IMG/VR virus record: IMGVR_UViG_3300048576_000594
Location: 1 to 31,369 of that record
Strand: one strand, 5' to 3'
DNA length: 31,369 nucleotides
Source of the DNA: a virus
Taxonomy: Duplodnaviria; Caudoviricetes
The notes below the pieces were generated by a model. That model saw only the letters and a program-made list of their open reading frames with translations. It was not told where the DNA came from and made no database searches. Positions 1,394 through 28,542 of this stretch are shown here, piece after piece (position 1 is the stretch's first letter; every line of letters starts with the position of its first letter). A program made the translations under genes and the position numbers.

Positions 1394-2188
1394 ATGTCAG
1401 TGTTAGAACAAATCAGAACAGGCAAGCAATCATCGCCGCCGCGAATTTTACGTTACGGCACAGAAGGAATTGGCAAATCAACATTTGCAGCGCAGGCACC
1501 GAATCCAATCTTCATACCAACCGAAGATGGATTAAACGAAATAAACTGTGCAAGTTTCCCCATGGCTAAAAAATATAGCGATGTGGAAAGTTATCTATCA
1601 GCTCTTGCGATAGAACAACATGAGTACCAGACAATAATTATTGATTCATGTGATTGGCTCGAACAGCTTATCTGGGATGAATTGTGCCGCCTGTCTGGGG
1701 CAAGCAGTATTGAACGAGTTGATGGTGGATACTCCCGCGGTTACACAGCAGCGGTAGGTTTTTGGAGACAGATTGTTGATGCACTTGATGCCTTGAGAAC
1801 TGAGAGGCATATGGCAACAATTTTAATCGCACATGCAAAAGTCGAACGCTTCGAAGATCCAGAATCCAATGCCTACGATAGATACACACCACGCACGCAT
1901 AAACATGCTACAGCTTTACTTACGGAATGGTCGGATGCAGTTTTATTTGCAACACGCAAATTCAGAACTGAATCTGAAAATATGGGCTTTGGAAAAGAGC
2001 GTACAATCGCTGTTGGCCTTGGTAAAGATGGCGGCGAGCGTGTTATTCGCACTGTTGGCGGGCCATCGTGTATTGCCAAGAACCGCTACAATCTTCCATA
2101 TGAAATTCCTCTTTCGTGGGATGCGTTTGTAAACGCACTCAATAACAACAATCAACCTCAAACTATAGGAGACGTAAACAATGGCTAA
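1394..2188 (+). CDS. Phage AAA_24 / Sak4-like ATPase (recombinase)
   Basis: Walker A YGTEGIGKST, Walker B IIIDSCDWLE, ILIAH, and C-terminal AKNRYNLP; adjacent to an SSB-like gene. Confidence 0.85.
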   Translation: MSVLEQIRTGKQSSPPRILRYGTEGIGKSTFAAQAPNPIFIPTEDGLNEINCASFPMAKKYSDVESYLSALAIEQHEYQTIIIDSCDWLEQLIWDELCRLSGASSIERVDGGYSRGYTAAVGFWRQIVDALDALRTERHMATILIAHAKVERFEDPESNAYDRYTPRTHKHATALLTEWSDAVLFATRKFRTESENMGFGKERTIAVGLGKDGGERVIRTVGGPSCIAKNRYNLPYEIPLSWDAFVNALNNNNQPQTIGDVNNG

Positions 2189-2633
2189 TCTTAATGGCTT
2201 TAACGCAAACAATGTAGAACCGGCAGATAATTTTGAACCCATACCAGCAGGCAAATATATTGCTGTGATTTCTGATTCACAAATGAAGCCTACCAAAAAC
2301 GGAGATGGCAGCCTTCTCGAACTTAAATTCGAAATTATTGAAGGCGAATATAAGGGTAGATTTATTTGGTCCCGGCTTTGTCTGGAAAATAAAAATGAAC
2401 AAACAGTAAAAATCGCCAAAAGTCAGTTGGCTGATATTTGCAGATCAGTTGGTATTTTAACCCCTCGCGATAGCTGCGAACTGCACAATTTACCAATACA
2501 AATTAAAGTCGCAGTAAAAAAACGCAGCGATAATGGTGAGGCTACAAACGAAGTAAAGGCTTATCAAAAGCGTGAAACCGCTGTAACGCAAAATTCTGCA
2601 GCTGCAAAAGGAGTCGCTCCCTGGAAACGCTGA
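2181..2633 (+). CDS. DUF669-family single-stranded DNA-binding protein
   Basis: FEPIPAGKY, EIIEGEYKGR and C-terminal APWKR; SD AGGAG. Confidence 0.85.
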   Translation: MANLNGFNANNVEPADNFEPIPAGKYIAVISDSQMKPTKNGDGSLLELKFEIIEGEYKGRFIWSRLCLENKNEQTVKIAKSQLADICRSVGILTPRDSCELHNLPIQIKVAVKKRSDNGEATNEVKAYQKRETAVTQNSAAAKGVAPWKR

Positions 2634-3007
2634 TAATAGAGCTGCCATATCCGCCAAGTATCAATCATTATTTCAAACGGCGGGGGAACAGGACGTTCAT
2701 AGGGGCTGAGGGCATGATATTTCGCAATCGTGTCTGCAAAACCCTTATGGCAGCTAATGTAAAGCCGATGGCGGGTATGCTTGCAATGAAGGTAAGAGCA
2801 TACCCGCCGGACAGGCGGAAGCGTGATATAGACAATATTCAAAAGCCGCTTCTGGATGCATTGGAAAAAGGCAGGGCCTTTTATAACGATTGCCAGATTA
2901 AACATCTGACTACCGTTATGAAAGAACCGATCAAGGGTGGCAAAACAATAGTAACTATAAGGAAAATGAATGATAGAACTTCGGCCATATCAAAAACAAG
3001 CTGTTAA
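2621..3007 (+). CDS. rusA: RusA-family Holliday junction resolvase, probable CTG start
   Basis: N-terminal ELPYPPSINHY lies upstream of the ORF-track start (2714); catalytic PPDRRKRDIDNIQKPLLDAL...NDCQI; SD AAGGAG at 2608-2613, 7 nt before in-frame CTG 2621. Confidence 0.85.
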   Translation: METLIIELPYPPSINHYFKRRGNRTFIGAEGMIFRNRVCKTLMAANVKPMAGMLAMKVRAYPPDRRKRDIDNIQKPLLDALEKGRAFYNDCQIKHLTTVMKEPIKGGKTIVTIRKMNDRTSAISKTSC

Positions 3008-5414
3008 CGCTTGTTACGACTATATGCGAAAAAGTACAGGCAATGGCTGTCTCGTGCTGCCAACAGGATCAGGAAAATCGGTAATTTTGGCACAAATCTG
3101 TCATGATGCAGTTTCATTATGGAATGGAAGAGTCCTGGTTCTTGCACATGTGCAGGAATTAATTGAACAGAATGCGGCAAAAATAAAACATTTTCTTGGT
3201 GATAATTTTGTGGGCATATATTCTGCCGGCCTTAAACGAAAAGATATGCACCAACCCGTAATAGCGGCATCGATTCAATCCATTTATAAAAAAGCATTTG
3301 AGTTTGAGCCGTTCGATTTAATCATAATTGACGAGGCTCATCTGTTGGCACCAAAAGATGATGGAATGTATCTGTCCTTCCTGCGCGATGCAAAAATTGT
3401 AAATCCAAATATTCGACTTATTGCTACGACAGCCACGCCTTTCAGAACCAGTACAGGTATGATATGCGGGCCGGATAATATCTTAAACTCAATCTGTTTT
3501 GAGGTAGGGATAAAAGAATTAATCAGAGATGGTTTTTTATGCCCATTGCGCAGCAAAGCATCAAAAACACGCATTGATACAAGCGGTCTCCATATTCGCG
3601 GCGGTGAATTTATCGCCAATGAGCTTGAAGATTTGATGGATACTGACGCTCGCGTTAAGGCTGCATGTGCTGAAATTCTCGAATATACGCAGGATAGACA
3701 CGCGGTTCTTATTTTTGCCGCTGGTGTTGATCACGGCAAGCACATTCAGCGGATTTTCCAGGAAAATCACAATATCGAATGCGGATTTGTCAGCGGCGAT
3801 AGTCCCGATGGCTGGCGAAAGAAGATGATTGATGATTTTCGCAGTGGAAAACTCAAATATCTATGCAATGTAAATGTTTTAACGACAGGTTTTGATGCAC
3901 CTAATATCGACTGTATAGCAATGTTACGCCCGACAATGTCGCCGGGGCTTTATATTCAAATGGTAGGAAGGGGTTTTAGATTACATCCAAGTAAAACAAA
4001 CTGCATTGCAGAGGGACAACGAATTTTAACAGACCAAGGTCTAATTCCAATTGAGCGAGTCACTACTGCAATGCGTGTATGGGACGGTTTCAATTTCGTT
4101 AATCACAATGGTGTTATTTGTAAAGGAGAACAAGATGTTATTAACTATGCCGGCATCGTTGCAACCCCCGACCATCAGGTGTGGACAAAAGAAGGTTGGA
4201 AGACCCTCAGGGAGTGTTCCATCAAACAAACTCCCATCATTGTTACCGGAATTGGTAGAAAAGTCATTCGGGAAACTGATGGTTATTTCCGAACAAGTGA
4301 TTCGCAAGGGAAATCGTGGAAGACCTTATCTGCTTGTGAAATGCAAAACGTGTGGCCAGCAGTCCCTGAAAGACTATACCAGTATAATCCGCCAAAAAGC
4401 AGGCTGTCGAACATGCGGACAGCCACGACGTGCTCTGCAATGGCTTGTGCAGCGAGCATCGAACGCGAAGGATCGCTGTACGAATCCCCGCAATCGAAGA
4501 TACCACGACTATGGTGGCCGGGGAATAGGGTTTCACTTCGAAACACCGACAACAATGGCAATATGGATTCAGGAAAATCTCGGCATTCACCGAAATATGC
4601 AAATCGACAGAATAGACAACAACGGTCATTACGCACCTGGAAATTTGCGTTATCTTACTGCGAGGGAGAATATGCGAAACAGGCGTACTGTAGGCGTGTG
4701 CGTGTCTGGGACATCGTAAATGCTGGCCCAAGGCATCAATTTACCTGCGAAGGGCTTTTGGTCTCAAACTGTACCGTTCTTGATTTTGGTGGAAATATTC
4801 TTCGTCATGGTCCCGTCGATTGCCTTCGGGTCACAGATGCAGTTGTCAAGGGAAACGGAGATGCACCAGCAAAGGAATGTCCCCAATGTAATGAAATCAT
4901 TCACGCTGCCTACGCAAGATGTCCTGCTTGTGGATACGAGTTCCCACCGCCGGAAAAGACCAAGCACGAAACCTCTGCCAGTACCGAAGGGATTCTGTCC
5001 GACCAGGCAAGTGTTAATGAATACGAGGTGCAGGAAGTTCTGTACAACGTTCACACCAAGAAAAGTGCTAAAACCGAATCACCTCGAACCATGCGAGTGC
5101 AATATAAAATAGGTTTTGCCTCTTATATTTCTGAATGGATATGTTTTGAACATACTGGTTTTGCACGCCATAAGGCGGAAATCTGGTGGAGCCAAAGGTC
5201 TAGTGATCCTATCCCTGACCAATCTGATATGGCAGTGTTTTTCGCAGAAAATGGAAGATTAAAAGAACCTGTAAAAATAACAGTAAAACATATCTCTGGT
5301 CAGAAGTTCGACAGAATAGTCAGTTATCAATTTGAAAATCCTGAAGAATCGGATTGGCAGATCAACAAAGTTGTACCTGACTATGTCCAGGCGGACGATT
5401 CAATACCTTTTTGA
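2970..5414 (+). CDS. SF2 DEAD/DEAH-box helicase (RadD/YejH-like, C-terminal zinc ribbon) containing an intein
   Basis: LRPYQ, PTGSGKS, IIIDEAH, TATPFR, VLTTGFDAP, QMVGRGFR; CPQC...CPAC zinc ribbon; DDSIPF tail. Confidence 0.92.
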   Translation: MIELRPYQKQAVNACYDYMRKSTGNGCLVLPTGSGKSVILAQICHDAVSLWNGRVLVLAHVQELIEQNAAKIKHFLGDNFVGIYSAGLKRKDMHQPVIAASIQSIYKKAFEFEPFDLIIIDEAHLLAPKDDGMYLSFLRDAKIVNPNIRLIATTATPFRTSTGMICGPDNILNSICFEVGIKELIRDGFLCPLRSKASKTRIDTSGLHIRGGEFIANELEDLMDTDARVKAACAEILEYTQDRHAVLIFAAGVDHGKHIQRIFQENHNIECGFVSGDSPDGWRKKMIDDFRSGKLKYLCNVNVLTTGFDAPNIDCIAMLRPTMSPGLYIQMVGRGFRLHPSKTNCIAEGQRILTDQGLIPIERVTTAMRVWDGFNFVNHNGVICKGEQDVINYAGIVATPDHQVWTKEGWKTLRECSIKQTPIIVTGIGRKVIRETDGYFRTSDSQGKSWKTLSACEMQNVWPAVPERLYQYNPPKSRLSNMRTATTCSAMACAASIEREGSLYESPQSKIPRLWWPGNRVSLRNTDNNGNMDSGKSRHSPKYANRQNRQQRSLRTWKFALSYCEGEYAKQAYCRRVRVWDIVNAGPRHQFTCEGLLVSNCTVLDFGGNILRHGPVDCLRVTDAVVKGNGDAPAKECPQCNEIIHAAYARCPACGYEFPPPEKTKHETSASTEGILSDQASVNEYEVQEVLYNVHTKKSAKTESPRTMRVQYKIGFASYISEWICFEHTGFARHKAEIWWSQRSSDPIPDQSDMAVFFAENGRLKEPVKITVKHISGQKFDRIVSYQFENPEESDWQINKVVPDYVQADDSIPF
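4002..4769 (+). mobile_element. Intein (256 aa) inserted just after helicase motif VI
   Basis: Block A CIAEGQRILT, block B ATPDHQVWT, blocks F/G VWDIVNAGPRHQFTCEGLLVSN, +1 Cys. Removal restores GRGFRLHPSKTN-CTVLDFGGN. Confidence 0.92.
4135..4719 (+). CDS. HNH-type endonuclease (194 aa) nested in the +1 frame of the intein
   Basis: SD AAGGAG 4123-4128 and ATG 4135. Motifs FGKLMVI, CKTC, CRTC, RCTNPRNRRYHDYGGRGI and IDRIDNNGHYAPGNLRYLTARENMRNRR. Confidence 0.85.
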   Translation: MLLTMPASLQPPTIRCGQKKVGRPSGSVPSNKLPSLLPELVEKSFGKLMVISEQVIRKGNRGRPYLLVKCKTCGQQSLKDYTSIIRQKAGCRTCGQPRRALQWLVQRASNAKDRCTNPRNRRYHDYGGRGIGFHFETPTTMAIWIQENLGIHRNMQIDRIDNNGHYAPGNLRYLTARENMRNRRTVGVCVSGTS

Positions 5415-5426
5415 TGAAAGCGCATA

Positions 5427-7655
5427 ATGCCGAATATAAAAGAAATATCTTTTTCATATTTAAAAGCTGGCCTCTCAGTACTGCCGGCAAATGTGCAATT
5501 GAAATTTGCCGCACTGTCAGGCTGGAAACAATATCAGCAACGTTTGCCTTACGATTCTGAATTAGCATCTTGGTTCAGTAACGGAAATAACGGTGTATGT
5601 ATAGTAACTGGTAAAGTCTCCGGCAATCTTGAAATGATAGATTTTGATATTGCAGCTGAAATGTTCGAACCGTGGCAGGCAATTGTTAAAAAAGAATTGC
5701 CCGCTTTACTGCCTAAACTTGTTATCGAGAAATCTCAATCAGGCGGTCGCCACGTTATTTACCGCTGCGAGGATGAGATTTGTAAAAGCCTTAAACTTGC
5801 AAAACGTAAAATTACAGTAGACAGCAATGATGAAGTAACTTTTTGTGGCAAGAAATTCAAGCCAATTCAGGATAAGGATGGAAGCTGGTATATTCTGCCA
5901 ACGTATATTGAAACTCGCGGTGAAGGTGGATTATTTCTATGTGCTCCAACTCCTGGTTATGAACTGATTAAAAATGATTTTACTGAAATTCCTGTAATAT
6001 CCGCAGAAGACCGCGACATACTACTTTCAGCGGCACTATCTTTAAATGAATATGTTCCAGAGCCGATACAGCCACCTCAAACAACAACATCTCCCTCAGG
6101 TAATCTACGTCCCGGTGATGATTACAATACCAACGGAGATATAAGGGAAGTTTTACTTCAACATGGCTGGCAATGTTATCAAGGCGGTGAAAACGAGCAT
6201 TGGTGCAGGCCGGGTAAAACAAGCGGAACTTCTGCAACACTTAAAAACAGAGTGTTTTATGTATTCAGTACTAATGCCCATCCGTTTGAAAGTGAAAAAG
6301 CATATTCACCATTTAGCGTTTACACACTCTTAGAACATAACGGAGATTTTGCTCAAGCGGCTCGAGCACTGGCACAGCAAGGCTATGGTCAAAGACAGCA
6401 GGATAGCAGCGATGTGGATATATCGGGGATTGTCGGCAAAGATTTGGCTAGTGAATCCAGCGAATGGCAGGATGATGCGGTTTCACTCAGCAATTTAATA
6501 ACCGATTTTTCCGGATTAAATCCGCCAATTATTCATGGTTTATTGCGTGAAGGTGAAACGATGAATATTATCGCTGCACCCAAAGTAGGCAAATCCTGGC
6601 TGGTCAATTCTCTGTCCATTGCGATTGCCACAGGTCTGGACTGGCTTGGATTCAAGGTCGAGCAAGGGTCTGTTCTGGTTATCGATAATGAGCTGCATGT
6701 AAATACCCTCACCTATCGGTATATGGAACTTGCCAAAGCAATGAAATTGAATCCTAAATTATTCAGTCAGCAGGTGAAAATTAAATCTCTTCGCGGTCAA
6801 TTGAAAGATTTGATGGCGCTGAGTGAATATTTTCAGCGGCTTAAGCCCAATGCCTACAAAGTTATTATTCTCGACGCCTTTTACCGTACATTGCCTGACA
6901 AGACCGACGAAAACGACAATGGCGCGATTGCCCGGTTATACAATAGCTTGGATTGTCACGCGATGCGTTTGAATTGTGCATTTGTTCTTATTCACCATAC
7001 CAGTAAGGGCAATCAGTCTCAAAAATCAATTACTGATGTCGGCGCTGGTGCCGGCAGCCAATCTCGTGCTGTCGATACTCACGTCATCCTGCGTCCGCAT
7101 GAAGATGAGGACAAAATTGTCATGGATGCGGTTGTGCGATCGTGGGCACCGCTTGAGTCATTGGTTTTACGGAAACAGCATCCGCTATTTGAAGTGGATA
7201 CAACCGCTGACCCAACCGCGCTTCTTGGCGCAGAGAAGAAACGTGAACCTAAAAAAGAAGTGCTACTCAATGAATTTGTTGACACCTGCATTGGCAGTCA
7301 AGACCCGTGCTTGATGAGCGATATTGTGCGGCTGGCCAGCAAGCATTATGACCTCTCTGAACGCAAGACCAAAACGATGGTGGACTCGGCGATCGATGAA
7401 AATCTTGCTGTAAAAATCCACACCGGTAGCAGGATTCAGTACACGAAATTTCGTGAAGGTTTTAGTGGTGAAAAAGGTCAATGGGTTGCCGCTTTACTAT
7501 CGCGAAATCCTGACGCAGATATTGCAAATATCGCTCATTTAACCGGCGCTTCCCAGCGTTATATACGCATGGTCAAAAACGGAAATGACGCGGAAATGGC
7601 CGGAAATGATTTCCGCGACAGTTCCACCTTAACTCCTGATGAGGACACAAGTTAA
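5427..7655 (+). CDS. Bifunctional primase-polymerase fused to a RepA/AAA_25-type helicase
   Basis: GLSVLPA, WKQYQ, GNLEMIDFD, SQSGGRHVIYR, IETRGEGG; Walker A AAPKVGKS, IILDAFYR, VLIHHTSKG. Confidence 0.88.
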   Translation: MPNIKEISFSYLKAGLSVLPANVQLKFAALSGWKQYQQRLPYDSELASWFSNGNNGVCIVTGKVSGNLEMIDFDIAAEMFEPWQAIVKKELPALLPKLVIEKSQSGGRHVIYRCEDEICKSLKLAKRKITVDSNDEVTFCGKKFKPIQDKDGSWYILPTYIETRGEGGLFLCAPTPGYELIKNDFTEIPVISAEDRDILLSAALSLNEYVPEPIQPPQTTTSPSGNLRPGDDYNTNGDIREVLLQHGWQCYQGGENEHWCRPGKTSGTSATLKNRVFYVFSTNAHPFESEKAYSPFSVYTLLEHNGDFAQAARALAQQGYGQRQQDSSDVDISGIVGKDLASESSEWQDDAVSLSNLITDFSGLNPPIIHGLLREGETMNIIAAPKVGKSWLVNSLSIAIATGLDWLGFKVEQGSVLVIDNELHVNTLTYRYMELAKAMKLNPKLFSQQVKIKSLRGQLKDLMALSEYFQRLKPNAYKVIILDAFYRTLPDKTDENDNGAIARLYNSLDCHAMRLNCAFVLIHHTSKGNQSQKSITDVGAGAGSQSRAVDTHVILRPHEDEDKIVMDAVVRSWAPLESLVLRKQHPLFEVDTTADPTALLGAEKKREPKKEVLLNEFVDTCIGSQDPCLMSDIVRLASKHYDLSERKTKTMVDSAIDENLAVKIHTGSRIQYTKFREGFSGEKGQWVAALLSRNPDADIANIAHLTGASQRYIRMVKNGNDAEMAGNDFRDSSTLTPDEDTS

Positions 7656-9345: not shown

Positions 9346-10566
9346 ATGAAAATTGAATTAAAAAACATCAATGATATTCGTCCATATGACAATAATCCGC
9401 GTGATAACAGCGGGGCGGTCGATGCTGTAGCGGCAAGTTTGAAGGAATTTGGATTCAGGCAGCCCATTGTGGTTGATAAAGACGGCGTAATTATCGTCGG
9501 CCATACCCGCTACAAGGCAGCGCAAAAGTTAGGTTTGGAAAAAGTTCCTGTGCATGTAGCGCAGGATTTAACCAATGCCCAGATAAAAGCATATCGAATC
9601 GCCGACAATCAAACCGCGACACTCGCGGAATGGAACTATGAACTGCTGCCAATCGAATTAAAAGATTTGCAGTCGATGGATTTCAATCTCGAACTGCTTG
9701 GCTTCGACAGTGACGAACTTGCAAAAATTCTTGATCCCGGCATACAAGAAGGTCTCACTGATCCGGACGATGTTCCGGAACCGCCGGCCGAGCCTATAAC
9801 AAAACCCGGCGATATATGGCTTTTAGGTGAGCACCGACTTTTGTGTGGTGATAGTACCAATCGTGACGATGTTGCCTATTTGATGAAAGGCGACAAGGCA
9901 GGTCTGGTATTCACGGATCCTCCATATAATGTCAACTACGGAATTTCTAAAAACCCGCGACATAAAATACGATCCATCGAAAATGATTCCATGTCAACTG
10001 ATGAATGGAGCATTTTCTGTCATAAGATGTATGAGATTTTTCAGGAATTTAATACTGGTGATATTTACATGTGGGGAGCATCAGGCCCGGAGGGAATGAG
10101 AATGAGGCTTTGGCTTGTGGAAATGGGCTGCCACTGGTCGGCAACAATTATTTGGAAAAAGCAGCAGCTTGTTTTATCTCCCGCAAAGTATCAGCGAATG
10201 TACGAACCATGTTACTATGGATGGTTTGGAAAGAGCAGCTTTGGTGACGATCGAACCCAAACAGAAGTATGGGAAATTAACCGTCCGCTCAATTCTAAAC
10301 TTCACCCAACTATGAAACCAGTGGAACTGTGCATTAAAGGCATAACAAATAGTTCCGTGCCAGGCACGATTGTATTTGATGGCTTCCTTGGCAGTGGCAG
10401 TACATTGATTGCATGTGAACAAACAGGGCGGAAGTGCTTCGGTGTTGAAATTGATCCGGCGTATTGTGACGTCATAAAAAACAGATGGGAACAATTTACA
10501 GGTAAAAAAGCAAAACTGGCCAACGACAAAGCCCCGATCGATGCCGGGGCTGAGGAGATAAGGTAA
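9346..10566 (+). CDS. ParB-N domain fused to an N6/N4 DNA methyltransferase (beta class)
   Basis: PYDNNPR, FGFRQPIVVD, IIVGHTRYKAA, YRIADN; catalytic TDPPY, HPTMKPV, SAM-binding DGFLGSGST. Confidence 0.92.
   Translation: MKIELKNINDIRPYDNNPRDNSGAVDAVAASLKEFGFRQPIVVDKDGVIIVGHTRYKAAQKLGLEKVPVHVAQDLTNAQIKAYRIADNQTATLAEWNYELLPIELKDLQSMDFNLELLGFDSDELAKILDPGIQEGLTDPDDVPEPPAEPITKPGDIWLLGEHRLLCGDSTNRDDVAYLMKGDKAGLVFTDPPYNVNYGISKNPRHKIRSIENDSMSTDEWSIFCHKMYEIFQEFNTGDIYMWGASGPEGMRMRLWLVEMGCHWSATIIWKKQQLVLSPAKYQRMYEPCYYGWFGKSSFGDDRTQTEVWEINRPLNSKLHPTMKPVELCIKGITNSSVPGTIVFDGFLGSGSTLIACEQTGRKCFGVEIDPAYCDVIKNRWEQFTGKKAKLANDKAPIDAGAEEIR
10526..10551 (-). terminator. Probable intrinsic terminator of the antisense cassette
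   Basis: AGCCCCG-8nt-CGGGGCT hairpin followed by TTGT on the minus strand, just past the stop at 10575. Confidence 0.55.
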
Positions 10567-10574
10567 TGGCTTTG

Positions 10575-11033
10575 TTATTTAGCGACAGTAAATTTGCCTC
10601 GCTCGGTTTTGACAAAGCGGGATTCGTGACCTTTTACCTTGATTTCGCGCGATATTGCAGCATGAAGTGTGGCGGCCGGTGTTTTTCCACCGGTTTTCCA
10701 CATACCCTTGTCCAACATTTGTTTGACGATCTCCTGGCAATCAAGCGGCTGGCCGGCATCGGCAAGGACCATAAAGGCTGCGGACAAGCCGCCAAGTTTT
10801 TTTATTTTTGGTTGGTCAGTGATTGTTACGGTCGGCGTTTTGGTTTCGGGTTTATCCTTATGAAAGAGGCCCCGGAATCTGTCGGCAGATTTAATAATCA
10901 TCTGTTTGTTAGTTTTGATATTGGCCCCAACCCAGCTGCCATCGGCGTTTTGGCTCATGATACGGACACCAATAGTATTTTTTCCGATTTTTATAGCGTA
11001 GATTTTACTGATTTGGATTTCGTTTGCATTCAT
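10575..11033 (-). CDS. Winged-helix (HARE-HTH-like) domain protein
   Basis: LSAAFMVLADAGQPLDCQEIV...W...GKTPAATLHAAISREI...SRFVKTERGKF; SD AAAGGA. Confidence 0.8.
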   Translation of the reverse strand: MNANEIQISKIYAIKIGKNTIGVRIMSQNADGSWVGANIKTNKQMIIKSADRFRGLFHKDKPETKTPTVTITDQPKIKKLGGLSAAFMVLADAGQPLDCQEIVKQMLDKGMWKTGGKTPAATLHAAISREIKVKGHESRFVKTERGKFTVAK

Positions 11034-11063
11034 TGTAAAAGTCCTTTCATTAAAAATATTTTT

Positions 11064-11234
11064 TTATCTGCTTTGAATAATTGTTATTTGAAATTCGCTG
11101 CCATCGCTGGTTCGGATGACAAGTCCGTTATTTGTGGTAAGAACTCCGGCTTCTTCAAAAGTCTGAACTCTTATGATTTCATCCTGACCCGCTATGGCAT
11201 CTGTGATAATTTCCTGAATATCTGCTCCGTTCAT
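11064..11234 (-). CDS. Small hypothetical protein (56 aa, absent from the ORF track)
   Basis: MNGADIQEIITDAIAGQDEIIRVQTFEEAGVLTTNNGLVIRTSDGSEFQITIIQSR; SD AAGGAG; fills the gap between neighbours. Confidence 0.75.
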   Translation of the reverse strand: MNGADIQEIITDAIAGQDEIIRVQTFEEAGVLTTNNGLVIRTSDGSEFQITIIQSR

Positions 11235-11246
11235 TTTAAAATCTCC

Positions 11247-11498
11247 TTAATCTGCAAAAAGGGTTATGTGGCGGAAATATTCATGTTTCATACTGTTGGT
11301 TCCGTGGCATCCATCGAGTTGGAACTGGATGCATTCGGCAAGGCTGAACATATCGTCCCGATCGTCGGGCGATACAAGATGGATGTTGACGCAGTCACCA
11401 TTGTTATCTGCGATATGGCAGACAATACTTTTTTCCTCTCTGCTGATAGTTGCTATGAATCCTGTTTCACCTTCGAGTGTTATTGTTTTAACCTTCAT
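11247..11498 (-). CDS. Hypothetical protein (83 aa)
   Basis: SD GGGAG, tightly packed in the minus-strand cassette. Confidence 0.7.
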   Translation of the reverse strand: MKVKTITLEGETGFIATISREEKSIVCHIADNNGDCVNIHLVSPDDRDDMFSLAECIQFQLDGCHGTNSMKHEYFRHITLFAD

Positions 11499-11501
11499 CG
11501 C

Positions 11502-11666
11502 TTATATCTCCCTGCAAGTGTTAATTTTGATAACCATCTGTTTGGGTTGGTTGGGTTTTGTGTGGGGTGGTTTGATAACGTTAATGTCGTAGCGGCCATC
11601 GGTATAAACTCCAACTACTCTGCCTCGGATTCCTTTGTATTTACCTTTTGTGATTTCGATCTTCAT
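11502..11666 (-). CDS. Small KOW-motif-like protein (54 aa, absent from the ORF track)
   Basis: MKIEITKGKYKGIRGRVVGVYTDGRYDINVIK...; ATGA overlap with the upstream gene; ITKGKYKGIRGRV resembles KOW. Confidence 0.7.
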   Translation of the reverse strand: MKIEITKGKYKGIRGRVVGVYTDGRYDINVIKPPHTKPNQPKQMVIKINTCREI

Positions 11667-11869
11667 TTGGTTTCCCTTTCAGTAATGTCTTCGAGTGATT
11701 CTTTGATTTGTGTTTCTGATATGCTGCTAAATATCGAAAGTGCCCGGATCAATTCTCTGCGGGCATCGATGGGCGAGCCAATGTTTGATTCTTTTGCCAG
11801 CTCGCATTCGAACCAGCCGAGCAGGTTTGCGATATCAAATCTTGCTGCTTTATATTCCGCGTTTTCCAT
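11663..11869 (-). CDS. Hypothetical protein (68 aa), first gene of the antisense cassette
   Basis: SD AAAGGG, ATG at 11869, stop overlaps the next start. Confidence 0.65.
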   Translation of the reverse strand: MENAEYKAARFDIANLLGWFECELAKESNIGSPIDARRELIRALSIFSSISETQIKESLEDITERETK

Positions 11870-11901
11870 TTTATTACCCTTTCAAAAATTATCGTTTAAG
11901 G

Positions 11902-11938
11902 ACATGCATGTGTTATCTAAATGAATATGCTAAAGCAA
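11902..11938 (-). promoter_or_regulatory. Possible promoter of the antisense cassette with palindromic site
   Basis: Minus-strand TTGCTT-17nt-TAACAC (weak -10) overlapping the palindrome ACATGCATGT at 11902-11911. Confidence 0.3.
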
Positions 11939-16219: not shown

Positions 16220-16291
16220 GGCGGGATAGAGCAACGGTAGCTCGGCAGGCTCATGATCTGCAAGATGAAGGTTCGAATCCTTCTCCCGCAA
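16220..16291 (+). tRNA. Initiator-like tRNA-Met (CAT), no encoded CCA
   Basis: Acceptor GCGGGA/TCCCGC with G1.A72 mismatch; D stem GAGC/GCTC; anticodon arm GCAGG-CTCATGA-TCTGC; T arm GAAGG-TTCGAAT-CCTTC. Confidence 0.85.
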
Positions 16292-16493: not shown

Positions 16494-17927
16494 ATGTGGT
16501 TTTTCGGTAAAAATAAAAAGCAAAAAGTCTTGCAGCCTGCAGGACGAATCCTGCGGGCAAGGTTCGATGCTGCACAGACCACAGCTGACAACCAGAGGCA
16601 TTGGGCCAATGCCGATTGTCTGTCTGCAGATTCAGCTGCAAACGCCGATGTTCGAAAGACCCTTCGTAACAGATCTCGCTATGAAGTTGCAAATAACAGT
16701 TATGCCAGGGGAATTGTCGCAACTCTTGCGAATGATGTCGTTGGAACAGGGCCAAGGCTCCAAATGCTGACCGATGAGACCTTAGGCAATGGTATTATCG
16801 AAACAGAATTTATGAACTGGGCATCTCAAATCAAACTTGCCCAAAAACTTCGTACCATGCGTATGGCAAGAGCAAGCGATGGTGAGGCATTCGGCATACT
16901 TTCAATAAACAGGAATTTAAATTCACCTGTAAAACTTGACCTTCGACTTATCGAAGCAGACCAGATTACTACGCCATGGTCGAAATTCCTTAACACACAA
17001 TCGTTAGTTGACGGCATTGAATTCGACCAGTTTGGAAATCCATCCAGCTATTATTGTTTAAAAAATCATCCAGGAGCTTTCTCGAATGCAGCTTTTTATG
17101 AATATAACACCATCGATGCAGATTCGATGATCCACTGGTATAGAGCTGATAGACCGGGACAGAGCCGCGGTATTCCTGAAATCACGCCGGCATTGCCGTT
17201 ATTTGCACAGCTTAGAAGATATACATTGGCAGTTATAGCAGCCGCTGAAACAGCTGCTGATTTTGCAGCAGTGTTATATACAGATTCACCAGCAAATGGT
17301 GAAGCGGCTAATTTAGAACCGATGGATGTAGTCCAACTTGAAAAAAGAATGGCTACAACGCTTCCTGATGGCTGGAAGCTTGGCCAGATAGAAGCCCATC
17401 AGCCGACAACTACGTACGGTGAGTTTAAAAACCAGATTCTAAATGAAATCGCTCGATGTCTGAATATGCCATTTAATATCGCGGCATGCAATTCATCGGG
17501 ATACAACTATGCATCAGGCCGGCTCGACCATCAAACATATCACAAGAGTATCAGGGTGGATCAGGCTGACATGGCACTAGTGATACTCGATAGGATTTTA
17601 CAGGCATGGCTCAATGAAGCGATTTTAATCTCAGACTACCTCCCGCTAAGTTGGCGAACTATTATGAGCCGGTGCAGGGCTACGCCTTGCCATCAGTGGT
17701 TCTGGGATGGCACAGAACATGTCGATCCTGCCAAAGAAGCCAAAGCACAGGAAATCAGGCTTTCCAATCATACTACCACACTCGCTGATGAATATGCAAA
17801 ACAAGGCAAGGACTGGGAAGTTGAACTACGACAGCGCTCACGCGAGAAAAAATTAATGGATGAATTAGGAATATCACAACAAACAACAACTACTTCAATT
17901 TTGGAGAAAGACGATGAGTCAGAATAA
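16494..17927 (+). CDS. Portal protein, lambda family
   Basis: LRNRSRYEVANNSYARGIV, VVGTGPRLQ, DGEAF, RPGQSRGIP, YNYASGRLD, HVDPAKEA. Confidence 0.92.
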   Translation: MWFFGKNKKQKVLQPAGRILRARFDAAQTTADNQRHWANADCLSADSAANADVRKTLRNRSRYEVANNSYARGIVATLANDVVGTGPRLQMLTDETLGNGIIETEFMNWASQIKLAQKLRTMRMARASDGEAFGILSINRNLNSPVKLDLRLIEADQITTPWSKFLNTQSLVDGIEFDQFGNPSSYYCLKNHPGAFSNAAFYEYNTIDADSMIHWYRADRPGQSRGIPEITPALPLFAQLRRYTLAVIAAAETAADFAAVLYTDSPANGEAANLEPMDVVQLEKRMATTLPDGWKLGQIEAHQPTTTYGEFKNQILNEIARCLNMPFNIAACNSSGYNYASGRLDHQTYHKSIRVDQADMALVILDRILQAWLNEAILISDYLPLSWRTIMSRCRATPCHQWFWDGTEHVDPAKEAKAQEIRLSNHTTTLADEYAKQGKDWEVELRQRSREKKLMDELGISQQTTTTSILEKDDESE

Positions 17928-19812
17928 ATTAAATTTAACGGCAAACTTTTCAATCGAAGCAGCACAGGTAATTGGCGAAAACGAAAAACCCAAGAACAGA
18001 CGGTTCTCAATGACGGCGTATACGGGTGGCCCGATGGCACTCGATGGCTGGAAGTATCCTGTGGTCATTGATTTGCAAGGTTTGAATGTTGGTAGCGGTT
18101 CGCGGCCAATATTTATCAGCCATAACCAGGATATCGATGATCTGCTTGGCCAGACTGATCATGTGGATATTCTGGAAAATAACTTAATCGCTGTTGGCGA
18201 AATTTTAGGCGATTCACCTCGCGTAACGCGTGTAATTGCACTAGCTGATAAAGGTTTTAAATGGCAGGCATCGATTGGAGCAAGGGCCGATCAGGTCGAA
18301 TTTATTAAAGCAGGCAATATCGCTAAAGTAAATGGCAAAGATTTTACAGGCCCACTTAATATAGCACGTAAAGCAACCTTGGGTGAAATAAGTTTTGTAA
18401 CCCTCGGCGCAGATAACAATACATCGGCAACAATAGCCGCAAATTTTCAGGAGCAAACTATGGAAAATAAAAATAAGGAAACCGACAAAAAAGAACAAAC
18501 AACTGTAACCGCAGAAAGTACTACCGCAGATATCCGGGCAGCGGCCGCTGCGGAAACCACTCGCATCGCAGCTATCAAAAAAATCTGCTGCGGTAAATAC
18601 GATGATATCGAAGCAAAGGCTATTTCAGAAGGATGGGACCAGGCCAAATGCGAATTAGAAGTTCTCAGGGCATCAAGACCTACTGTAAATATCGTCTCTT
18701 CGCAGAAACCTGCGGCAACCCCAAAGGTCTTTGAGGCAGTAGCATTGATGGCTTCGGGTATTTCAAGCTCTCGTTTGGAAACGCATTATGATGACCAGAC
18801 ACTTGATGCTGCTGAAAAACTTCGCGGTATAGGTATCCAGGAATATTGTGAGCAGATTTGCGCTATGCAGCTGCCCAGATTCCGCAGGGATGCATCGGCA
18901 TGGCTTGCAGCAGCATTCAGTACAGCATCGCTGCCGGGAATACTTTCCAATGTAGCCAATAAAATGCTGCTTGAAGGTTATAACTATATCGAAGATTCCT
19001 GGCGGAAGATCTGCAAGATTGCAAGTGTAAACGATTTTAAGGAACACAGCCGGTATCGTATGACCGGAAGTTTTAAATTCGAGCAGGTTGGTCCCGATGG
19101 TGAACTGAAACACGGCAAAATCGATGAGCAGAAATACGGCCAGAAGGCTGATACACACGGTATCATGTTTGCACTGACCCGCCAGATGATTATCAATGAT
19201 GATTTGGCTGCATTTACGGATGTACCCAGACAGATTGGTATGGGTGCAGCAGAAGCTATCGCTGATGCTGTATGGGGACTTTTACTTTCCAATCCATCGA
19301 GCTTCTTTTCCACTGCTCACAAAAACTATAAGGATGGTGCTGATACGGCACTGTGCGTTGATTCATTGACGGATGCAGAGGTTGTATTTGGCGAACAGAC
19401 TAAACCAAATGGTAAGCCGCTTGGTGTTCAACCTTCATTAATCCTGGTACCAACGGCTCTGAGGGTCCCGGCTGATTTATTGATGAAGTCACCAACTCTC
19501 AATGAAACTACAACGGCCAATAAAGGTAAACCTGCATCTAATCCTCATATCGGTAAATATGAAGTTGTTTCAAGCAGCTATTTGAGCAACTCATCTTTTG
19601 CAGGCTATAGTTCAAAGGCATGGTATCTGTTTGCTGATCCAAATAGACTGCCTGCCCTGGAAGTTGCGTTTTTAAATGGAATCGATCAACCCACAGTCGA
19701 AAAAACAGATGCCGATTTTAATACACTTGGCATTCAGTTCAGAGGCTTTATTGATTTTGGTGTCAGAGAACAGGATTATCGCGGCGCTGTGAAGTTCAAG
19801 GGTGAAGCGTAA
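17914..19812 (+). CDS. Prohead protease - major capsid protein fusion
   Basis: N-terminal protease-like AYTGG, ISHN, WQASIG, EISFVTLGAD; C-terminal capsid-like SVNDFK, GELKHG, LTRQMIINDDL, AWYLFADP, IDFGV..DYRG. Confidence 0.88.
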   Translation: MSQNKLNLTANFSIEAAQVIGENEKPKNRRFSMTAYTGGPMALDGWKYPVVIDLQGLNVGSGSRPIFISHNQDIDDLLGQTDHVDILENNLIAVGEILGDSPRVTRVIALADKGFKWQASIGARADQVEFIKAGNIAKVNGKDFTGPLNIARKATLGEISFVTLGADNNTSATIAANFQEQTMENKNKETDKKEQTTVTAESTTADIRAAAAAETTRIAAIKKICCGKYDDIEAKAISEGWDQAKCELEVLRASRPTVNIVSSQKPAATPKVFEAVALMASGISSSRLETHYDDQTLDAAEKLRGIGIQEYCEQICAMQLPRFRRDASAWLAAAFSTASLPGILSNVANKMLLEGYNYIEDSWRKICKIASVNDFKEHSRYRMTGSFKFEQVGPDGELKHGKIDEQKYGQKADTHGIMFALTRQMIINDDLAAFTDVPRQIGMGAAEAIADAVWGLLLSNPSSFFSTAHKNYKDGADTALCVDSLTDAEVVFGEQTKPNGKPLGVQPSLILVPTALRVPADLLMKSPTLNETTTANKGKPASNPHIGKYEVVSSSYLSNSSFAGYSSKAWYLFADPNRLPALEVAFLNGIDQPTVEKTDADFNTLGIQFRGFIDFGVREQDYRGAVKFKGEA

Positions 19813-19849: not shown

Positions 19850-20596
19850 ATGGCTTATACAATAAATTTTTATCAAAATGGCAAATCTATCGATTACACA
19901 CCGGCTGTTGATGTAGCGGCCGGTACTATCGTGGTCCAAAAAGGTGTTGTCGGTATAACTAAACTTGATATCCCGGCAAATGTAAAAGGTGCACTTTGCA
20001 TTGAAGGTATCTTTGCAGTGCCCAAAAAGAATGAAGCATTTGCAGCAGGACTGCCTGTATGGTTCGATGCTGATGGCAACCCGCAGGGTGGTGTCGCAGG
20101 TAGCGGGGCAGCTACACAAATTGGCGGCGATGCTCAGGCAGCTGGTGATGTGCTTCTCGGAACGGCAGTAATCGCGGCTGCAGCTGCGGATCAGTTTGTT
20201 TATGTTGCCTTAAATAAATTCGATGCTCGTATTCCGGCATTTGCAGAAAATGCTCGCATCGCCAAGGCAGCAAGTGCAAATGCAGCTGTAACAGAATCCG
20301 GAGTTTGCTACGATTGTACCGCAGATAATACGGTAATCACTCTGCCTGCAACAGCGGTTGGCCTTGAATTTACGGTTATGAATATGGCAGCTGATGGCGC
20401 TGCCAAGGTATCTGTTGATTTCCAGGCAGGTGATAAATCTCTTGGCGGTCTTGGCATTGCCGCAGGCGGTGACGGTTTCCAAATCGATAATACCAAAGCA
20501 ACTGCGAAAAAAGGCGATTTTATTACGCTCGTTGCTGATGGCACTGATGGCTACAGAATCAAGGCTATTCGCGGAACTTGGGCTCAGACAAGCTAA
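19850..20596 (+). CDS. DUF2190-like capsid cement/decoration protein with C-terminal extension
   Basis: YQNGKSIDYTPAVDVAAG...GALCIEGIFAVPK directly after the capsid gene; extra domain with ITLPA..GLEFTV and GDFITLVADG. Confidence 0.75.
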   Translation: MAYTINFYQNGKSIDYTPAVDVAAGTIVVQKGVVGITKLDIPANVKGALCIEGIFAVPKKNEAFAAGLPVWFDADGNPQGGVAGSGAATQIGGDAQAAGDVLLGTAVIAAAAADQFVYVALNKFDARIPAFAENARIAKAASANAAVTESGVCYDCTADNTVITLPATAVGLEFTVMNMAADGAAKVSVDFQAGDKSLGGLGIAAGGDGFQIDNTKATAKKGDFITLVADGTDGYRIKAIRGTWAQTS

Positions 20597-21719: not shown

Positions 21720-22025
21720 ATGCCACTACCAATTACAAAACCAGAGGATATTCAACAGCCAAATGCGGTTTATGTGCCGCAGATAATTCTACAAACTTCG
21801 ATTTACGATGGCAGATTAGTGCCATCGGCTATTATAAATCTTATGCCGGCAAAGTGTGTCGATGGCGTTTGGACTGAAACTGGTGGTCAGGTAAGAACCA
21901 TTCAAATACAAGATGTTACTAATTTGGATGAAGATTTGGCTTCGCTTCAGGAGCAGGCTAATCAGTTGTTTGGCGGCTTTGTGGAAATTATAGGCTATAT
22001 AAATGCAATTCGCAGGATACTGTAA
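21720..22025 (+). CDS. Hypothetical protein
   Basis: AAGGA SD and ATG 21720; TAATG-coupled to the next gene. Confidence 0.6.
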   Translation: MPLPITKPEDIQQPNAVYVPQIILQTSIYDGRLVPSAIINLMPAKCVDGVWTETGGQVRTIQIQDVTNLDEDLASLQEQANQLFGGFVEIIGYINAIRRIL

Positions 22026-23407
22026 TGACTACGTGGTACGGTCAAATCTGGGATAGTTTTAATTTTGATGATGCTGCATTAGCTGATGGGGTTTATACCA
22101 GCACTACTTGGAATAGTGCTTCTGATGGTAGCGGTACGTGGCTATCCTGGAATGAGAATCAAACTATAGTAGATGCTTATGCTGAGGGAGATACTTTCAG
22201 AACAGGTAGTGGTCTTGGTGCAACACTAAATGTAGATATTACTAAACATTGTGTGTTGTACTCTGTTGGCGGTAGTTTTCTTATATATGAAAACAGGATA
22301 ATTAACGCTGATTGTATAACAAATTCTCTAAGTGGTATTAGTATAGAAGCTTCCTGCACTGTTGTTATAAATGGTAATGTAACTGGCGGTGTAACATCTT
22401 CAGCTATAGGTATTTTTATTAAATCCAACGTTACTGCAAATATAACTATCAATGGGACAGTTAATGCTGGTTCGAGTGGAAATTCCTATGGGCTTTATGC
22501 CGCTGGTATCGGCTCAACTATAACAATTAATAACGGCTCAAACAATGCTGTTGTCTCAATTGGCACAGTGAAAGCATTGGTTGTAAGTGAAAATTTCACC
22601 ACCGTAAATATTACTGGTAACGTGGTAAGCGGGACCAGTGGTACTGGCATAATGCTAAACAATACGGGTGCAACACTAAATATCACAGGCAATGTTATTG
22701 GTGGTTCTTCATCGACAGGATATGGTATTAATATCGCTTCTGCTGCAACAAGCTCATCTTTAACTATTGTGGGAAATGTTAATGGTGCAGTTGGCGCAGC
22801 TATTTATTCAAGTGCTGCCGGTGTAACAATAGATGTTACCGGAAATATTACCTGTACAGGCACTGGTGCTGCTATTACTCTTGGCGCTGCTGCGACACTG
22901 GCACAAAGAAATGGCAATATTACAGCATCCGGCACTGCCGGCTCTTCTGGTGGACATGGCATTAGCATTACCTCAAATAATTGCATTCTAAATTTAAGTG
23001 GTAATGTATATGGTGGACAAAGTGCGGGCATAAATAATATATGTGGTATAAAAGTAAGTTATTCGGGAACCACAAGTTTTACACTTGCGCTCAATGGTAA
23101 TGTTTATGCCGGATTAGGCATCCTTTGCCATGGTATTTCAGTTGTTTCTGCAACGGCTTTTGGCACATATTCGGTTGTTATAAATGGAAATATTTTCAAT
23201 AATGAAAAAGCCCTCGGTGTTTCAGCACCTTATACGCTTGGTAGTTCAAACCAGTATTTTACCCAAAATCCAATAACAGGTGGTTCAATGATTAAATTTC
23301 CCATGCAGCTTGCTGTAGAAAAAGTGTTAAAAGGCCAAGTGCACGGCAATGTTGTGGGTACTCTTGCACCAGCAAGTCCATTTAGAAGATTGAAAAGATT
23401 TGTTTGA
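22025..23407 (+). CDS. Gly/Ser/Thr/Asn-rich beta-solenoid repeat protein, possible fibre or spike
   Basis: About ten repeats of (V/L)xIxGNVxGG with roughly 25-28 aa spacing. Confidence 0.7.
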   Translation: MTTWYGQIWDSFNFDDAALADGVYTSTTWNSASDGSGTWLSWNENQTIVDAYAEGDTFRTGSGLGATLNVDITKHCVLYSVGGSFLIYENRIINADCITNSLSGISIEASCTVVINGNVTGGVTSSAIGIFIKSNVTANITINGTVNAGSSGNSYGLYAAGIGSTITINNGSNNAVVSIGTVKALVVSENFTTVNITGNVVSGTSGTGIMLNNTGATLNITGNVIGGSSSTGYGINIASAATSSSLTIVGNVNGAVGAAIYSSAAGVTIDVTGNITCTGTGAAITLGAAATLAQRNGNITASGTAGSSGGHGISITSNNCILNLSGNVYGGQSAGINNICGIKVSYSGTTSFTLALNGNVYAGLGILCHGISVVSATAFGTYSVVINGNIFNNEKALGVSAPYTLGSSNQYFTQNPITGGSMIKFPMQLAVEKVLKGQVHGNVVGTLAPASPFRRLKRFV

Positions 23408-27722: not shown

Positions 27723-28541
27723 ATGGCAGGCACATATACAATCTCTGAACGATGGTCAGCTCGCAAACGCGGTGGCGGATCTAATAAAGGCGCAACTGTC
27801 GAATATGTAATTCAAGAGACAACTGCCGGCGCACCAGAAATGGATGATGGGCAGGTTATAACTGCACTTGCCGATAGCGCACCTACAACCTGGGGAACAG
27901 CTTTAATACCACGTGTATCATACGATGTAGAGCAAATTGCTGATCGAATTTGGATCGGCACAGTTAATTATGGCTATAACAAAAAGGAAGTTGGTGATAT
28001 TGAATACAGCTTCGACACTGGTGGCGGCAGCCAAAAGATCACCCAAACGATTTCACCTTTAAATGTTTGGAGATATGGAAATAGTGCACCTGATTTCAAG
28101 GGTGCGATAAACGTCGATGACAACAGCGTAAATGGCGTTGATATTGTAGTGCCGGTATATAGTTTTAATGAAACCAGAATTGTTGATAATGACGATGTTG
28201 GCTCAGCTTTTAAATCTGCTTTATTTAATCTTACTGGCAAAGTTAATCATTTAAGCTGGCATGGCTTTAATGCCGGCGAAGTTCTATTTATGGGAGCAAG
28301 TGGTTCACGTCATGGCCGAAGAGGTGATTGGGAAATTAATTATAAATTTGCAGCAAGTCCTAACAAAACCAATATAACTATCGGGACCATTACCGGTATT
28401 GATAAAAAAGGTTGGGAGTATCTTTGGGTCAGATATGAAAAAAGCACAGACCAGAATTGTCTGGTACAAATTCCTAAGGCAGTTTACGTGCATCAAGTTT
28501 ATGAATATGGTGATTTTGCAGCGCTAGGGCTAGGTGACTAA
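27723..28541 (+). CDS. Minor tail / tail-tip protein
   Basis: Directly follows the tape measure gene; GKVN..W.GFNAGEVLFMGASG, KKGWEYLWVRY. Confidence 0.65.
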   Translation: MAGTYTISERWSARKRGGGSNKGATVEYVIQETTAGAPEMDDGQVITALADSAPTTWGTALIPRVSYDVEQIADRIWIGTVNYGYNKKEVGDIEYSFDTGGGSQKITQTISPLNVWRYGNSAPDFKGAINVDDNSVNGVDIVVPVYSFNETRIVDNDDVGSAFKSALFNLTGKVNHLSWHGFNAGEVLFMGASGSRHGRRGDWEINYKFAASPNKTNITIGTITGIDKKGWEYLWVRYEKSTDQNCLVQIPKAVYVHQVYEYGDFAALGLGD

Positions 28542-28542
28542 T

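Follow-up and report, generated by a model that had tools for sequence, protein, structure and literature searches.

Here we describe a phage helicase gene that carries a predicted intein and, overprinted in the +1 frame of that intein, a second open reading frame (ORF) for a putative nuclease. The element lies in a provirus record (IMG/VR IMGVR_UViG_3300048576_000594; Duplodnaviria; Caudoviricetes), which was analysed over its full 31,369 nt (the window). On the evidence of sequence and structural models, what interrupts the helicase is an intein of HINT fold whose middle is disordered, and the +1 gene is real, under selection and very likely functional. We consider it probable that the helicase precursor splices out the intein and that the separately initiated nuclease cuts empty alleles, the repair of which copies the element together with short flanks.

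A gene overprinted in the +1 frame

The +1 ORF (4135–4719) had been noticed in a preliminary description made from the DNA letters alone, and every motif named there was located: the 194-aa product holds two CxxC pairs (C70-C73 and C91-C94), YHDYGGRGI and IDRIDNNGHYAPGNLRY. The frame had been called open across the central region of the intein; it is open from 4045 to 4716, but not in the first 14 intein codons. The TAA of the ORF sits in the intein D-I-V-N codons of block F, so that, as had been described, the ORF stops inside this block and overlaps both splicing regions.

The start signals of the gene are written into intein codons. The Shine–Dalgarno-like AAGGAG placed upstream of ATG 4135 in the preliminary description was recovered, and start codon and Shine–Dalgarno sequence co-vary and shift together among relatives. 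A second ATG in the window, at 4147 (codon 48), is the commoner start among relatives; because the Shine–Dalgarno match is longer for ATG 4135 (codon 44; 6 nt) than for ATG 4147 (3 nt), 4135 is the likelier start here. Across 143 distinct related inteins, codon 48 provides an ATG in 96, and a Shine–Dalgarno match of at least 5 nt is present in 63 of these 96 versus 7 of the 47 without ATG48. Codon 44 provides an ATG in 17 of the 143 (14 of these without ATG48, 11 with a match of at least 5 nt) and codon 62 a start in 13, and 23 have none of the three usual ATG positions. The tyrosine codon that supplies the ATG is TAT rather than TAC at a ratio of 93:28, versus 339:336 in exteins. In 69 of the 96 inteins, one of the six codons before ATG48 is a stop in +1, which argues against entry through an upstream frameshift. 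No plus-strand promoter-like site, and hence no sign of an internal promoter, was seen in 2900–5450, and RNA structure over the +1 start was unexceptional (z 0.59).

A chance origin of the +1 ORF is excluded. Synonymous recoding of the nuclease introduced a mean of 14.6 stops into the intein frame, which was open in 0 of 5,000 trials, and recoding of the intein-frame protein left the +1 frame open in 1 of 5,000. Ratios of nonsynonymous to synonymous substitution (dN/dS) were taken over 27 disjoint pairs out of 214 gap-free pairs. The ratio was 0.16 for the intein frame over codons 0–43, 0.27 in-frame and 0.72 in +1 over block B, 1.55 in-frame and 0.15 in +1 over the central region, and 0.49 in-frame and 0.50 in +1 over block F, where synonymous divergence fell from 0.35–0.38 to 0.12. 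Between the window and six same-site relatives, identity in the middle was 45–58% in +1 and 20–32% in-frame. Taken together, these data show selection that switches frame, acting on the intein frame towards either end and on +1 in between. The purifying selection in +1 for which the preliminary description had proposed a test was found, and the ORF is intact in close homologs, where its interruption would have spoken against a gene.

A HINT-fold intein with no nuclease in its own frame

The intein runs from Cys1 at 4002 to Asn256 at 4767–4769, is followed by Cys at +1 (4770) and is inserted directly after helicase motif VI. These ends, as well as the TPDH block, match those first proposed, and the boundaries are fixed by empty relatives and by invariant residues: C1, T55, H58, D237 and N256 are unchanged across 66 aligned inteins, and the class 1 residue set is present. 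A structural model built from the 66-sequence alignment is confident at residues 1–90 and 231–256 and poor between. The in-frame middle, already suspected to be of low information, has a predicted local distance difference test score (pLDDT) of about 50, and 36 of its 128 residues are S, R or Q. Folding both frames, as had been suggested, gave inteins in one case and a well-modelled protein (mean pLDDT 86.7) in the other. The top Foldseek matches to the intein model are all inteins (DnaE, RecA, DnaB and DnaX; probability 1.00), with 13 intein matches at E ≤ 0.001, in line with a HINT fold. Pfam and NCBIfam gave no intein family match to the insert, and a PDB sequence search with the intein returned only weak intein matches (E ≥ 0.017). 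The intein frame has no nuclease match in Pfam, PHROG or NCBIfam and is not a canonical full intein.

A predicted PacI-type nuclease

The +1 product matches phrog_374 (HNH; E 1.3e-24) and, weakly, the endonuclease VII PHROG (3.1e-5); beyond a weak DUF723 match, Pfam and NCBIfam found nothing in this frame. Homologs numbered 420 among 484 candidates. In the N-terminal half, C70, C73, C91 and C94 are invariant across 40 aligned proteins, and the CxxC beta domain has weak SH3/Tudor-like fold matches (Z ≤ 4.9). Foldseek searches of a viral library gave 99 matches to the nuclease model at E ≤ 0.001, of which those with names are for the most part putative HNH or AP2 proteins, and the nearest ESM Atlas clusters (0.94–0.96) are unnamed viral proteins.

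The D-R motif, with Tyr at +8 and Asn at +12, is kept in 142 of 143 inteins, and Asn at +21 in 120 of 142. The His general base that follows the metal-binding Asp in classical HNH enzymes of the I-HmuI type is not present, the dipeptide being D-R in 142 of 143, and I-HmuI matches the model at a Foldseek E of only 0.75. R159, Y166 and N179 are spaced as R93, Y100 and N113 of PacI (+7/+20). In the excerpted text of PMC3765158, the PacI site is H42-R93-Y100-N113, with Arg in the usual His position, and in the available parts of PMC5714182, PMC3384342 and PMC4081073, Tyr replaces His. The D-R motif therefore likely marks a PacI-type site. The preliminary description had cautioned that D-R in place of D-H left activity in doubt; the missing His is real, and the worry about inactivity is softened by the Arg and downstream Tyr, the PacI arrangement (PMC3765158 and PMC5714182, as excerpted). 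Structural alignment of the catalytic half to PacI (3m7k_A) ranked 2 of 48,161 (Z 5.0, root-mean-square deviation 3.3, 73 residues, 19% identity) and is suggestive only.

A lineage across several host genes

Searches by nuclease similarity gave at least 239 loci (at least 80 viral, at least 80 metagenomic and 79 genomic), and close homologs (E ≤ 1e-22 and at least 120 aligned residues) numbered 169 among the loci listed. An open host frame of at least 400 aa surrounds the nuclease in 168 of these 169 versus 9 of the 70 weaker homologs listed. By hidden Markov model, both splicing regions share one open frame in 161 of the 169, with stops between them in 1 and one half only in 7, at contig ends or breaks; the 70 weaker loci comprise 5 contiguous inteins, 10 split ones and 55 loci without an intein. 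Intein boundaries were parsed in 155 of the 177 open-frame cases, window included, and 143 of these are distinct in DNA. Their hosts, classed by flank motifs and verified on representatives, are 96 polymerase A genes, 42 superfamily 2 (SF2) helicases and 5 DnaB-like helicases, and the flanks define, by eye, about a dozen sites. The nuclease tree shows 3 changes of host class, against a mean of 40 after shuffling, and the correlation between nuclease distances and those of the splicing domain is 0.69; the deep branches of the trees are not resolved, and the splicing-domain tree is a quick version. Among cultured phages, the element itself occurs without annotation in the polymerase genes of Streptococcus Javan prophages and Gardnerella phage AB1.

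Starting from the intein avoids selecting on the nuclease, although this set overlaps the nuclease-first loci and includes the window's contig. Among the best 80 loci found in this way, 63 were full inteins with an intact +1 gene, 14 mini-inteins, 2 truncated and 1 unclassified with a +1 match, and in none of the 80 was the nuclease in frame or antisense. Longer proteins (8 matches among 207 candidates) included no complete in-frame IntN-nuclease-IntC-extein, which is weak evidence.

We lean slightly towards a broader reading of these counts, in which the element belongs to a widespread, annotation-invisible intein lineage whose standard design is homing by an overprinted PacI-type nuclease. 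Start signals would lie in splicing-domain codons and move by compensatory shifts, intein and nuclease would have moved jointly to new targets, about a dozen sites across DNA polymerase A, SF2 helicases and DnaB-like helicases, and the lineage, with its contiguous, split and mini members, would hold the intermediates of intein–nuclease partnership that models had only proposed. The layout of the window is the rule for a large family, spanning hundreds of phage loci and three kinds of host gene, with 585 nt of dual coding and two folded products at the ends. Because Pfam and NCBIfam miss both frames, many 'nuclease-less' phage inteins may be mobile. The lineage offers a natural series (overprinted, split and mini) for the joining of homing nucleases and inteins, its related nucleases, retargeted to many sites, are material for studying specificity change, and it would add a large, likely active family of Tyr-base (PacI-type) nucleases.

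Empty alleles and insertion junctions

Eighty loci were gathered with the N-extein. Leaving aside the locus of the window itself, the intein site is empty in all 79 related helicases, where it reads ...H.xK.[DN]/CLVLD. The nearest empty helicase alleles share 84–89% DNA identity. In run X1, empty-allele contigs join across exactly 768 nt at a depth of 31–51, and intein contigs have a depth of 6–7, these being summed depths and not copy numbers; an X3 contig over the upstream junction (90%-identical extein) reaches only 25 nt into the intein and was left uncounted. Three studies provide five contigs over the intein, with 0 gaps there, and both contig variants are silent in +1 and missense in-frame. 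Differences between the window and five close empty alleles are concentrated near the junction (9 of 25 consensus columns at a distance of up to 15 nt, versus 25 of 503 farther out), a pattern that likely reflects a short co-conversion tract from a divergent donor (Table 1). Separately, a close helicase relative (L255:1790 onward) has another in-frame intein, whose length was estimated by eye at about 360 aa, inserted 13 codons before this site.

Table 1 Features of the helicase gene and its nested element in the window
Feature	Position	Strand	Basis
Host gene: phage SF2 (RadD/YejH-like) helicase, 814 aa including the intein	2970..5414	+	Pfam, PHROG, NCBIfam
Likely co-conversion tract, upstream	3987..4001	+	5/12 consensus columns differ, five close empty alleles; 13/240 further upstream
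Predicted intein, 256 aa, class-1 type ends (Cys1 ... Ser-Asn / Cys+1)	4002..4769	+	empty relatives, model, Foldseek
Shine–Dalgarno-like AAGGAG, from intein K-G-E codons, 6 nt upstream of ATG 4135	4123..4128	+	sequence
+1 ORF, 194 aa (190 aa from ATG 4147), predicted His-Me-finger-like PacI-type nuclease	4135..4719	+	phrog_374, homologs, model
Block B TPDH; in +1, part of the nuclease N-terminal arm	4164..4175	+	T55 and H58 invariant, 66 aligned inteins
Nuclease N-terminal beta-sheet domain with two CxxC pairs; predicted DNA-binding/zinc module	4225..4431	+	alignment, model
Predicted catalytic domain: D158 (4606), R159 (4609), Y166 (4630), N170, N179 (4669)	4435..4692	+	conservation, fold
Nuclease 3' end overlapping intein block F (Asp237 at 4710)	4680..4719	+	sequence
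Likely co-conversion tract, downstream, begins with Cys+1	4770..4784	+	4/13 columns differ; 12/234 further downstream

Proposed mechanism and alternatives

In the homing model that we favour, ribosomes on the helicase mRNA would make the 814-aa precursor, from which the HINT domain would splice itself out, the in-frame middle forming an unstructured loop. A second initiation at AAGGAG/ATG 4135 (or at ATG 4147) would yield a protein of 190–194 aa. This nuclease would bind the exon junction through its CxxC beta domain and nick or cut it with a PacI-type centre (Asp/Asn-bound metal and a Tyr base), and repair from the intein-plus genome, in co-infection or against a resident prophage, would copy the intein along with some 15 nt of flanking DNA per side. 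As to origin, a free-standing D-R..Y nuclease gene may have entered a mini-intein out of frame and later extended into both splicing regions.

Several points weigh against this model. We infer translation, cutting, splicing and homing from the sequence, and none of the four was observed. The start-signal counts are not phylogenetically independent and their Fisher tests ignore shared ancestry, and the pairs used for dN/dS are nearly all polymerase copies and not members of the clade to which the window belongs. The intein has Ser255, not His, as its penultimate residue; in class 1 inteins this His is usual, not universal, and SN, AN and EN endings recur among relatives of the intein. The PacI fold match, at Z 5.0, is tied with one to an unrelated axonemal chain at Z 5.4 and falls short of the level, about 8, at which the tool is reliable. 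Foldseek found no match to the nuclease model in the PDB at E ≤ 0.001, and PDB sequence and profile searches found no solved relative of the nuclease. Host-class clustering and the distance correlation can reflect descent, and selection on splice flanks could account for the junction differences. The window nuclease is, moreover, a short form without about 60 C-terminal residues found in most relatives (194 versus about 250 aa), and it is off-consensus at two nearly invariant positions (E42 for G and L101 for P).

These last two features would suit an early-decay relic of an active family, in which a shortened nuclease has lost a DNA-binding region and no longer homes; loss does occur in the lineage, as the 14 mini-inteins among the best 80 intein-first loci attest. 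Yet the short form is intact in at least six database proteins at 62–74% identity (P0001–P0003, P0005, P0007 and P0008) and in L327, all catalytic and zinc residues are kept, and near-identical copies in three studies carry only variants that are silent in +1, so we regard decay as unlikely. A fusion produced by ribosomal +1 frameshifting from the helicase frame, in place of separate initiation, could exploit the +1 frame of the window, which is open from 4045, 90 nt ahead of the ATG, and might account for the 23 of 143 inteins without an ATG at the three usual positions and for the database fusions P0058, P0123 and P0126. Those fusions, however, join at varied places without block G and the C-extein, as expected for indel errors or dead alleles, and the Shine–Dalgarno sequence and ATG shift together behind an upstream +1 stop in most ATG48 inteins (69 of 96), which makes frameshifting highly improbable.

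The nuclease might instead be mainly a weapon against co-infecting intein-less phages, or serve another phage function, with homing secondary. Interference by an intron nuclease is described in the literature, the purifying selection is strong, the targets are essential replication genes and intein-plus alleles are rare beside empty ones; on the other hand, gene conversion is consistent with the patchy occurrence among close relatives and with a junction tract on both sides, and the roles are not exclusive. We hold a mainly offensive role to be very unlikely. Finally, because the window is a metagenomic provirus record, two compensating indels could in principle mask an ordinary in-frame HNH intein, as the preliminary description had recognized. 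The likelihood of such an assembly artefact is close to nil: the contigs of three studies, five in all and gap-free over the intein, contain no compensating indels, and 161 of the 169 close homologs among the loci listed share the frame layout from the N to the C splicing region, which refutes it.

Relation to described systems

A contiguous intein whose separately translated nuclease mobilizes it had been put forward as a third, possibly undescribed architecture. This did not hold: contiguous inteins with an out-of-frame nuclease are in print (10.1101/2025.01.02.630785, as far as its available text goes; 10.64898/2026.09.14.751524), where they are treated as rare and approached computationally, and RefSeq (NC_000935.1) already annotates an intein in the APSE-1 DNA polymerase (P45) with a nested P46 'HNH endonuclease'. 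The layout of the window is thus already known; for the lineage itself, no paper was found in the literature searched, to which InBase and the Gosselin supplements, outside that search, could be an exception. The available parts of 10.1101/2020.03.17.996009, PMC3185647, PMC1564403, PMC8425127, PMC6293099 and PMC5418858 do not describe the element.

The available text of Gosselin, Arsenault and Gogarten (10.1101/2025.01.02.630785) reports actinobacteriophage inteins with an endonuclease VII-like homing endonuclease (HEN) in frame 3, or with antisense LAGLIDADG or VSR HENs. The window resembles these inteins in being contiguous, with an open host frame, a nuclease in another frame and a disordered in-frame middle, and the origin proposed there is likewise invasion by a free-standing HEN. 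It differs in that its nuclease is D-R..Y (PacI-type) and in frame +1, that the ORF overlaps blocks B and F, whereas theirs typically lie outside the splicing domain, and that hosts here include helicases, which are unlisted in their non-canonical set, the comparison being by description only. Phillips, DeSimone and Gogarten (10.64898/2026.09.14.751524) analysed a cyanobacterial DnaX intein with an out-of-frame LAGLIDADG HEN (a '+2 ORF'), a Shine–Dalgarno motif and dN/dS, and the first proposal of this nuclease is credited there to Gorbalenya 1998. Both systems have a same-strand overlapping ORF, a Shine–Dalgarno-like motif, frame-dependent dN/dS and coexisting full, mini and empty alleles. 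However, the DnaX intein occupies one site in one chromosomal gene, whereas the present lineage uses another nuclease superfamily, is spread over about a dozen sites that belong to three families of phage gene, and includes split forms.

The APSE-1 splicing domain is related to that of the window (44% over 68 aa), as is the nuclease, and both nucleases are in +1. Unlike the window's, the APSE-1 nuclease starts after block B and groups with free-standing genes on the tree (support 92/90, not starred), so it may be a separate invasion. The ShiLan domain (Arsenault et al., PMC11855218, as excerpted) is similarly a 195-aa out-of-frame HNH gene inside an open phage gene frame, but has no splicing domain, whereas here a predicted HINT domain would remove the insert. 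In fractured genes, according to the excerpted text of Dassa et al. (PMC2677866), a nuclease lies between intein halves and overlaps the downstream half by 6–69 bp. This split layout is shared by 10–11 relatives of the window's element; the window intein is instead contiguous, and the nucleases of fractured genes are GIY-YIG and Vsr-like. The predicted enzyme resembles PacI (PDB 3M7K), a Tyr-base His-Me finger nuclease, in its Arg at the usual His position and its R-Y-N spacing (+7/+20), but PacI is a homodimeric restriction enzyme with 19% identity, and the equivalent of PacI H42 was not located. Beyond the published layout, what deserves a specialist's attention is how widespread the lineage is, that the overlap extends into both splicing regions, the predicted PacI-type site and the availability of cultured models.

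Split, sister and broken relatives

In L070, L074, L077–L082, L186 and L202, the N-half, nuclease and C-half occupy three frames (around 1900–3200 in most), and L098 has stops between the intein halves. Candidate ATG/Shine–Dalgarno restarts precede block F in split loci, giving short C-halves in a fractured-gene layout in which the nuclease lies between the two halves and overlaps them. These loci, in polymerase A genes, are possibly new natural split inteins of short length.

Sister versions occur in cultured Caulobacter, E. coli and Salmonella phages, which makes out-of-frame homing directly testable. APSE-1, Caulobacter phage RW and Shewanella phage SFCi1 have a related polymerase intein with a related nested +1 nuclease (L404:2231–2653 for APSE-1 P46; L406; L407), and the open frame extends far upstream of the point at which P46 is annotated to start. 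A Jerseyvirus/Kagunavirus-type polymerase intein of 299 aa contains a D-R..Y nuclease ORF of 248–253 codons in +2 (L405 and L408–L412), unannotated in the six records fetched, and 154 phage records match. In this type, 63 of 105 differences across three pairs fall at the +2 wobble position. The polymerase of SE2 (L405) is annotated as two pieces. The tree, with poor support, hints at separate nuclease invasions among the sister types.

Free-standing nuclease relatives interrupt polymerase A genes without an intein in L185, L189, L227 and L237, and in L185 and L227 the interruption is seen near the same polymerase motif. An intron origin for these four was considered and is unsupported, Rfam showing no group I intron around them. 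L026, L028 and L105 are broken copies in which the polymerase ends inside block F, and in L033 an unrelated ORF lies upstream of the nuclease and is joined to it. In P0058, P0123, P0124 and P0126, an indel joins the host or intein frame to the nuclease frame, with no complete in-frame intein.

Host helicase and phage context

The helicase ORF is open throughout its 814 aa (2970–5414). It matches ResIII, Helicase_C and DEAD in Pfam, phrog_16 in PHROG (E 7e-102) and, under the cut-off, a RadD-like NCBIfam family (E 5.5e-88). The provirus record (31,369 nt) carries replication genes and, after them, genes for terminase, portal, capsid and tail proteins. Between the terminase region and the portal gene, at 16220–16291, lies a tRNA gene (Rfam RF00005, 58 bits). 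The 632-aa capsid protein (17914–19812) has its capsid domain confined to the C-terminal half, and the 248-aa cement protein (19850–20596) is about twice the length of the Pfam model. Long ORFs at 10566–11924, 22025–23407 and 27723–30995 have no Pfam or PHROG family match, and a sub-threshold CBM_5_12 match falls within 29361–30995.

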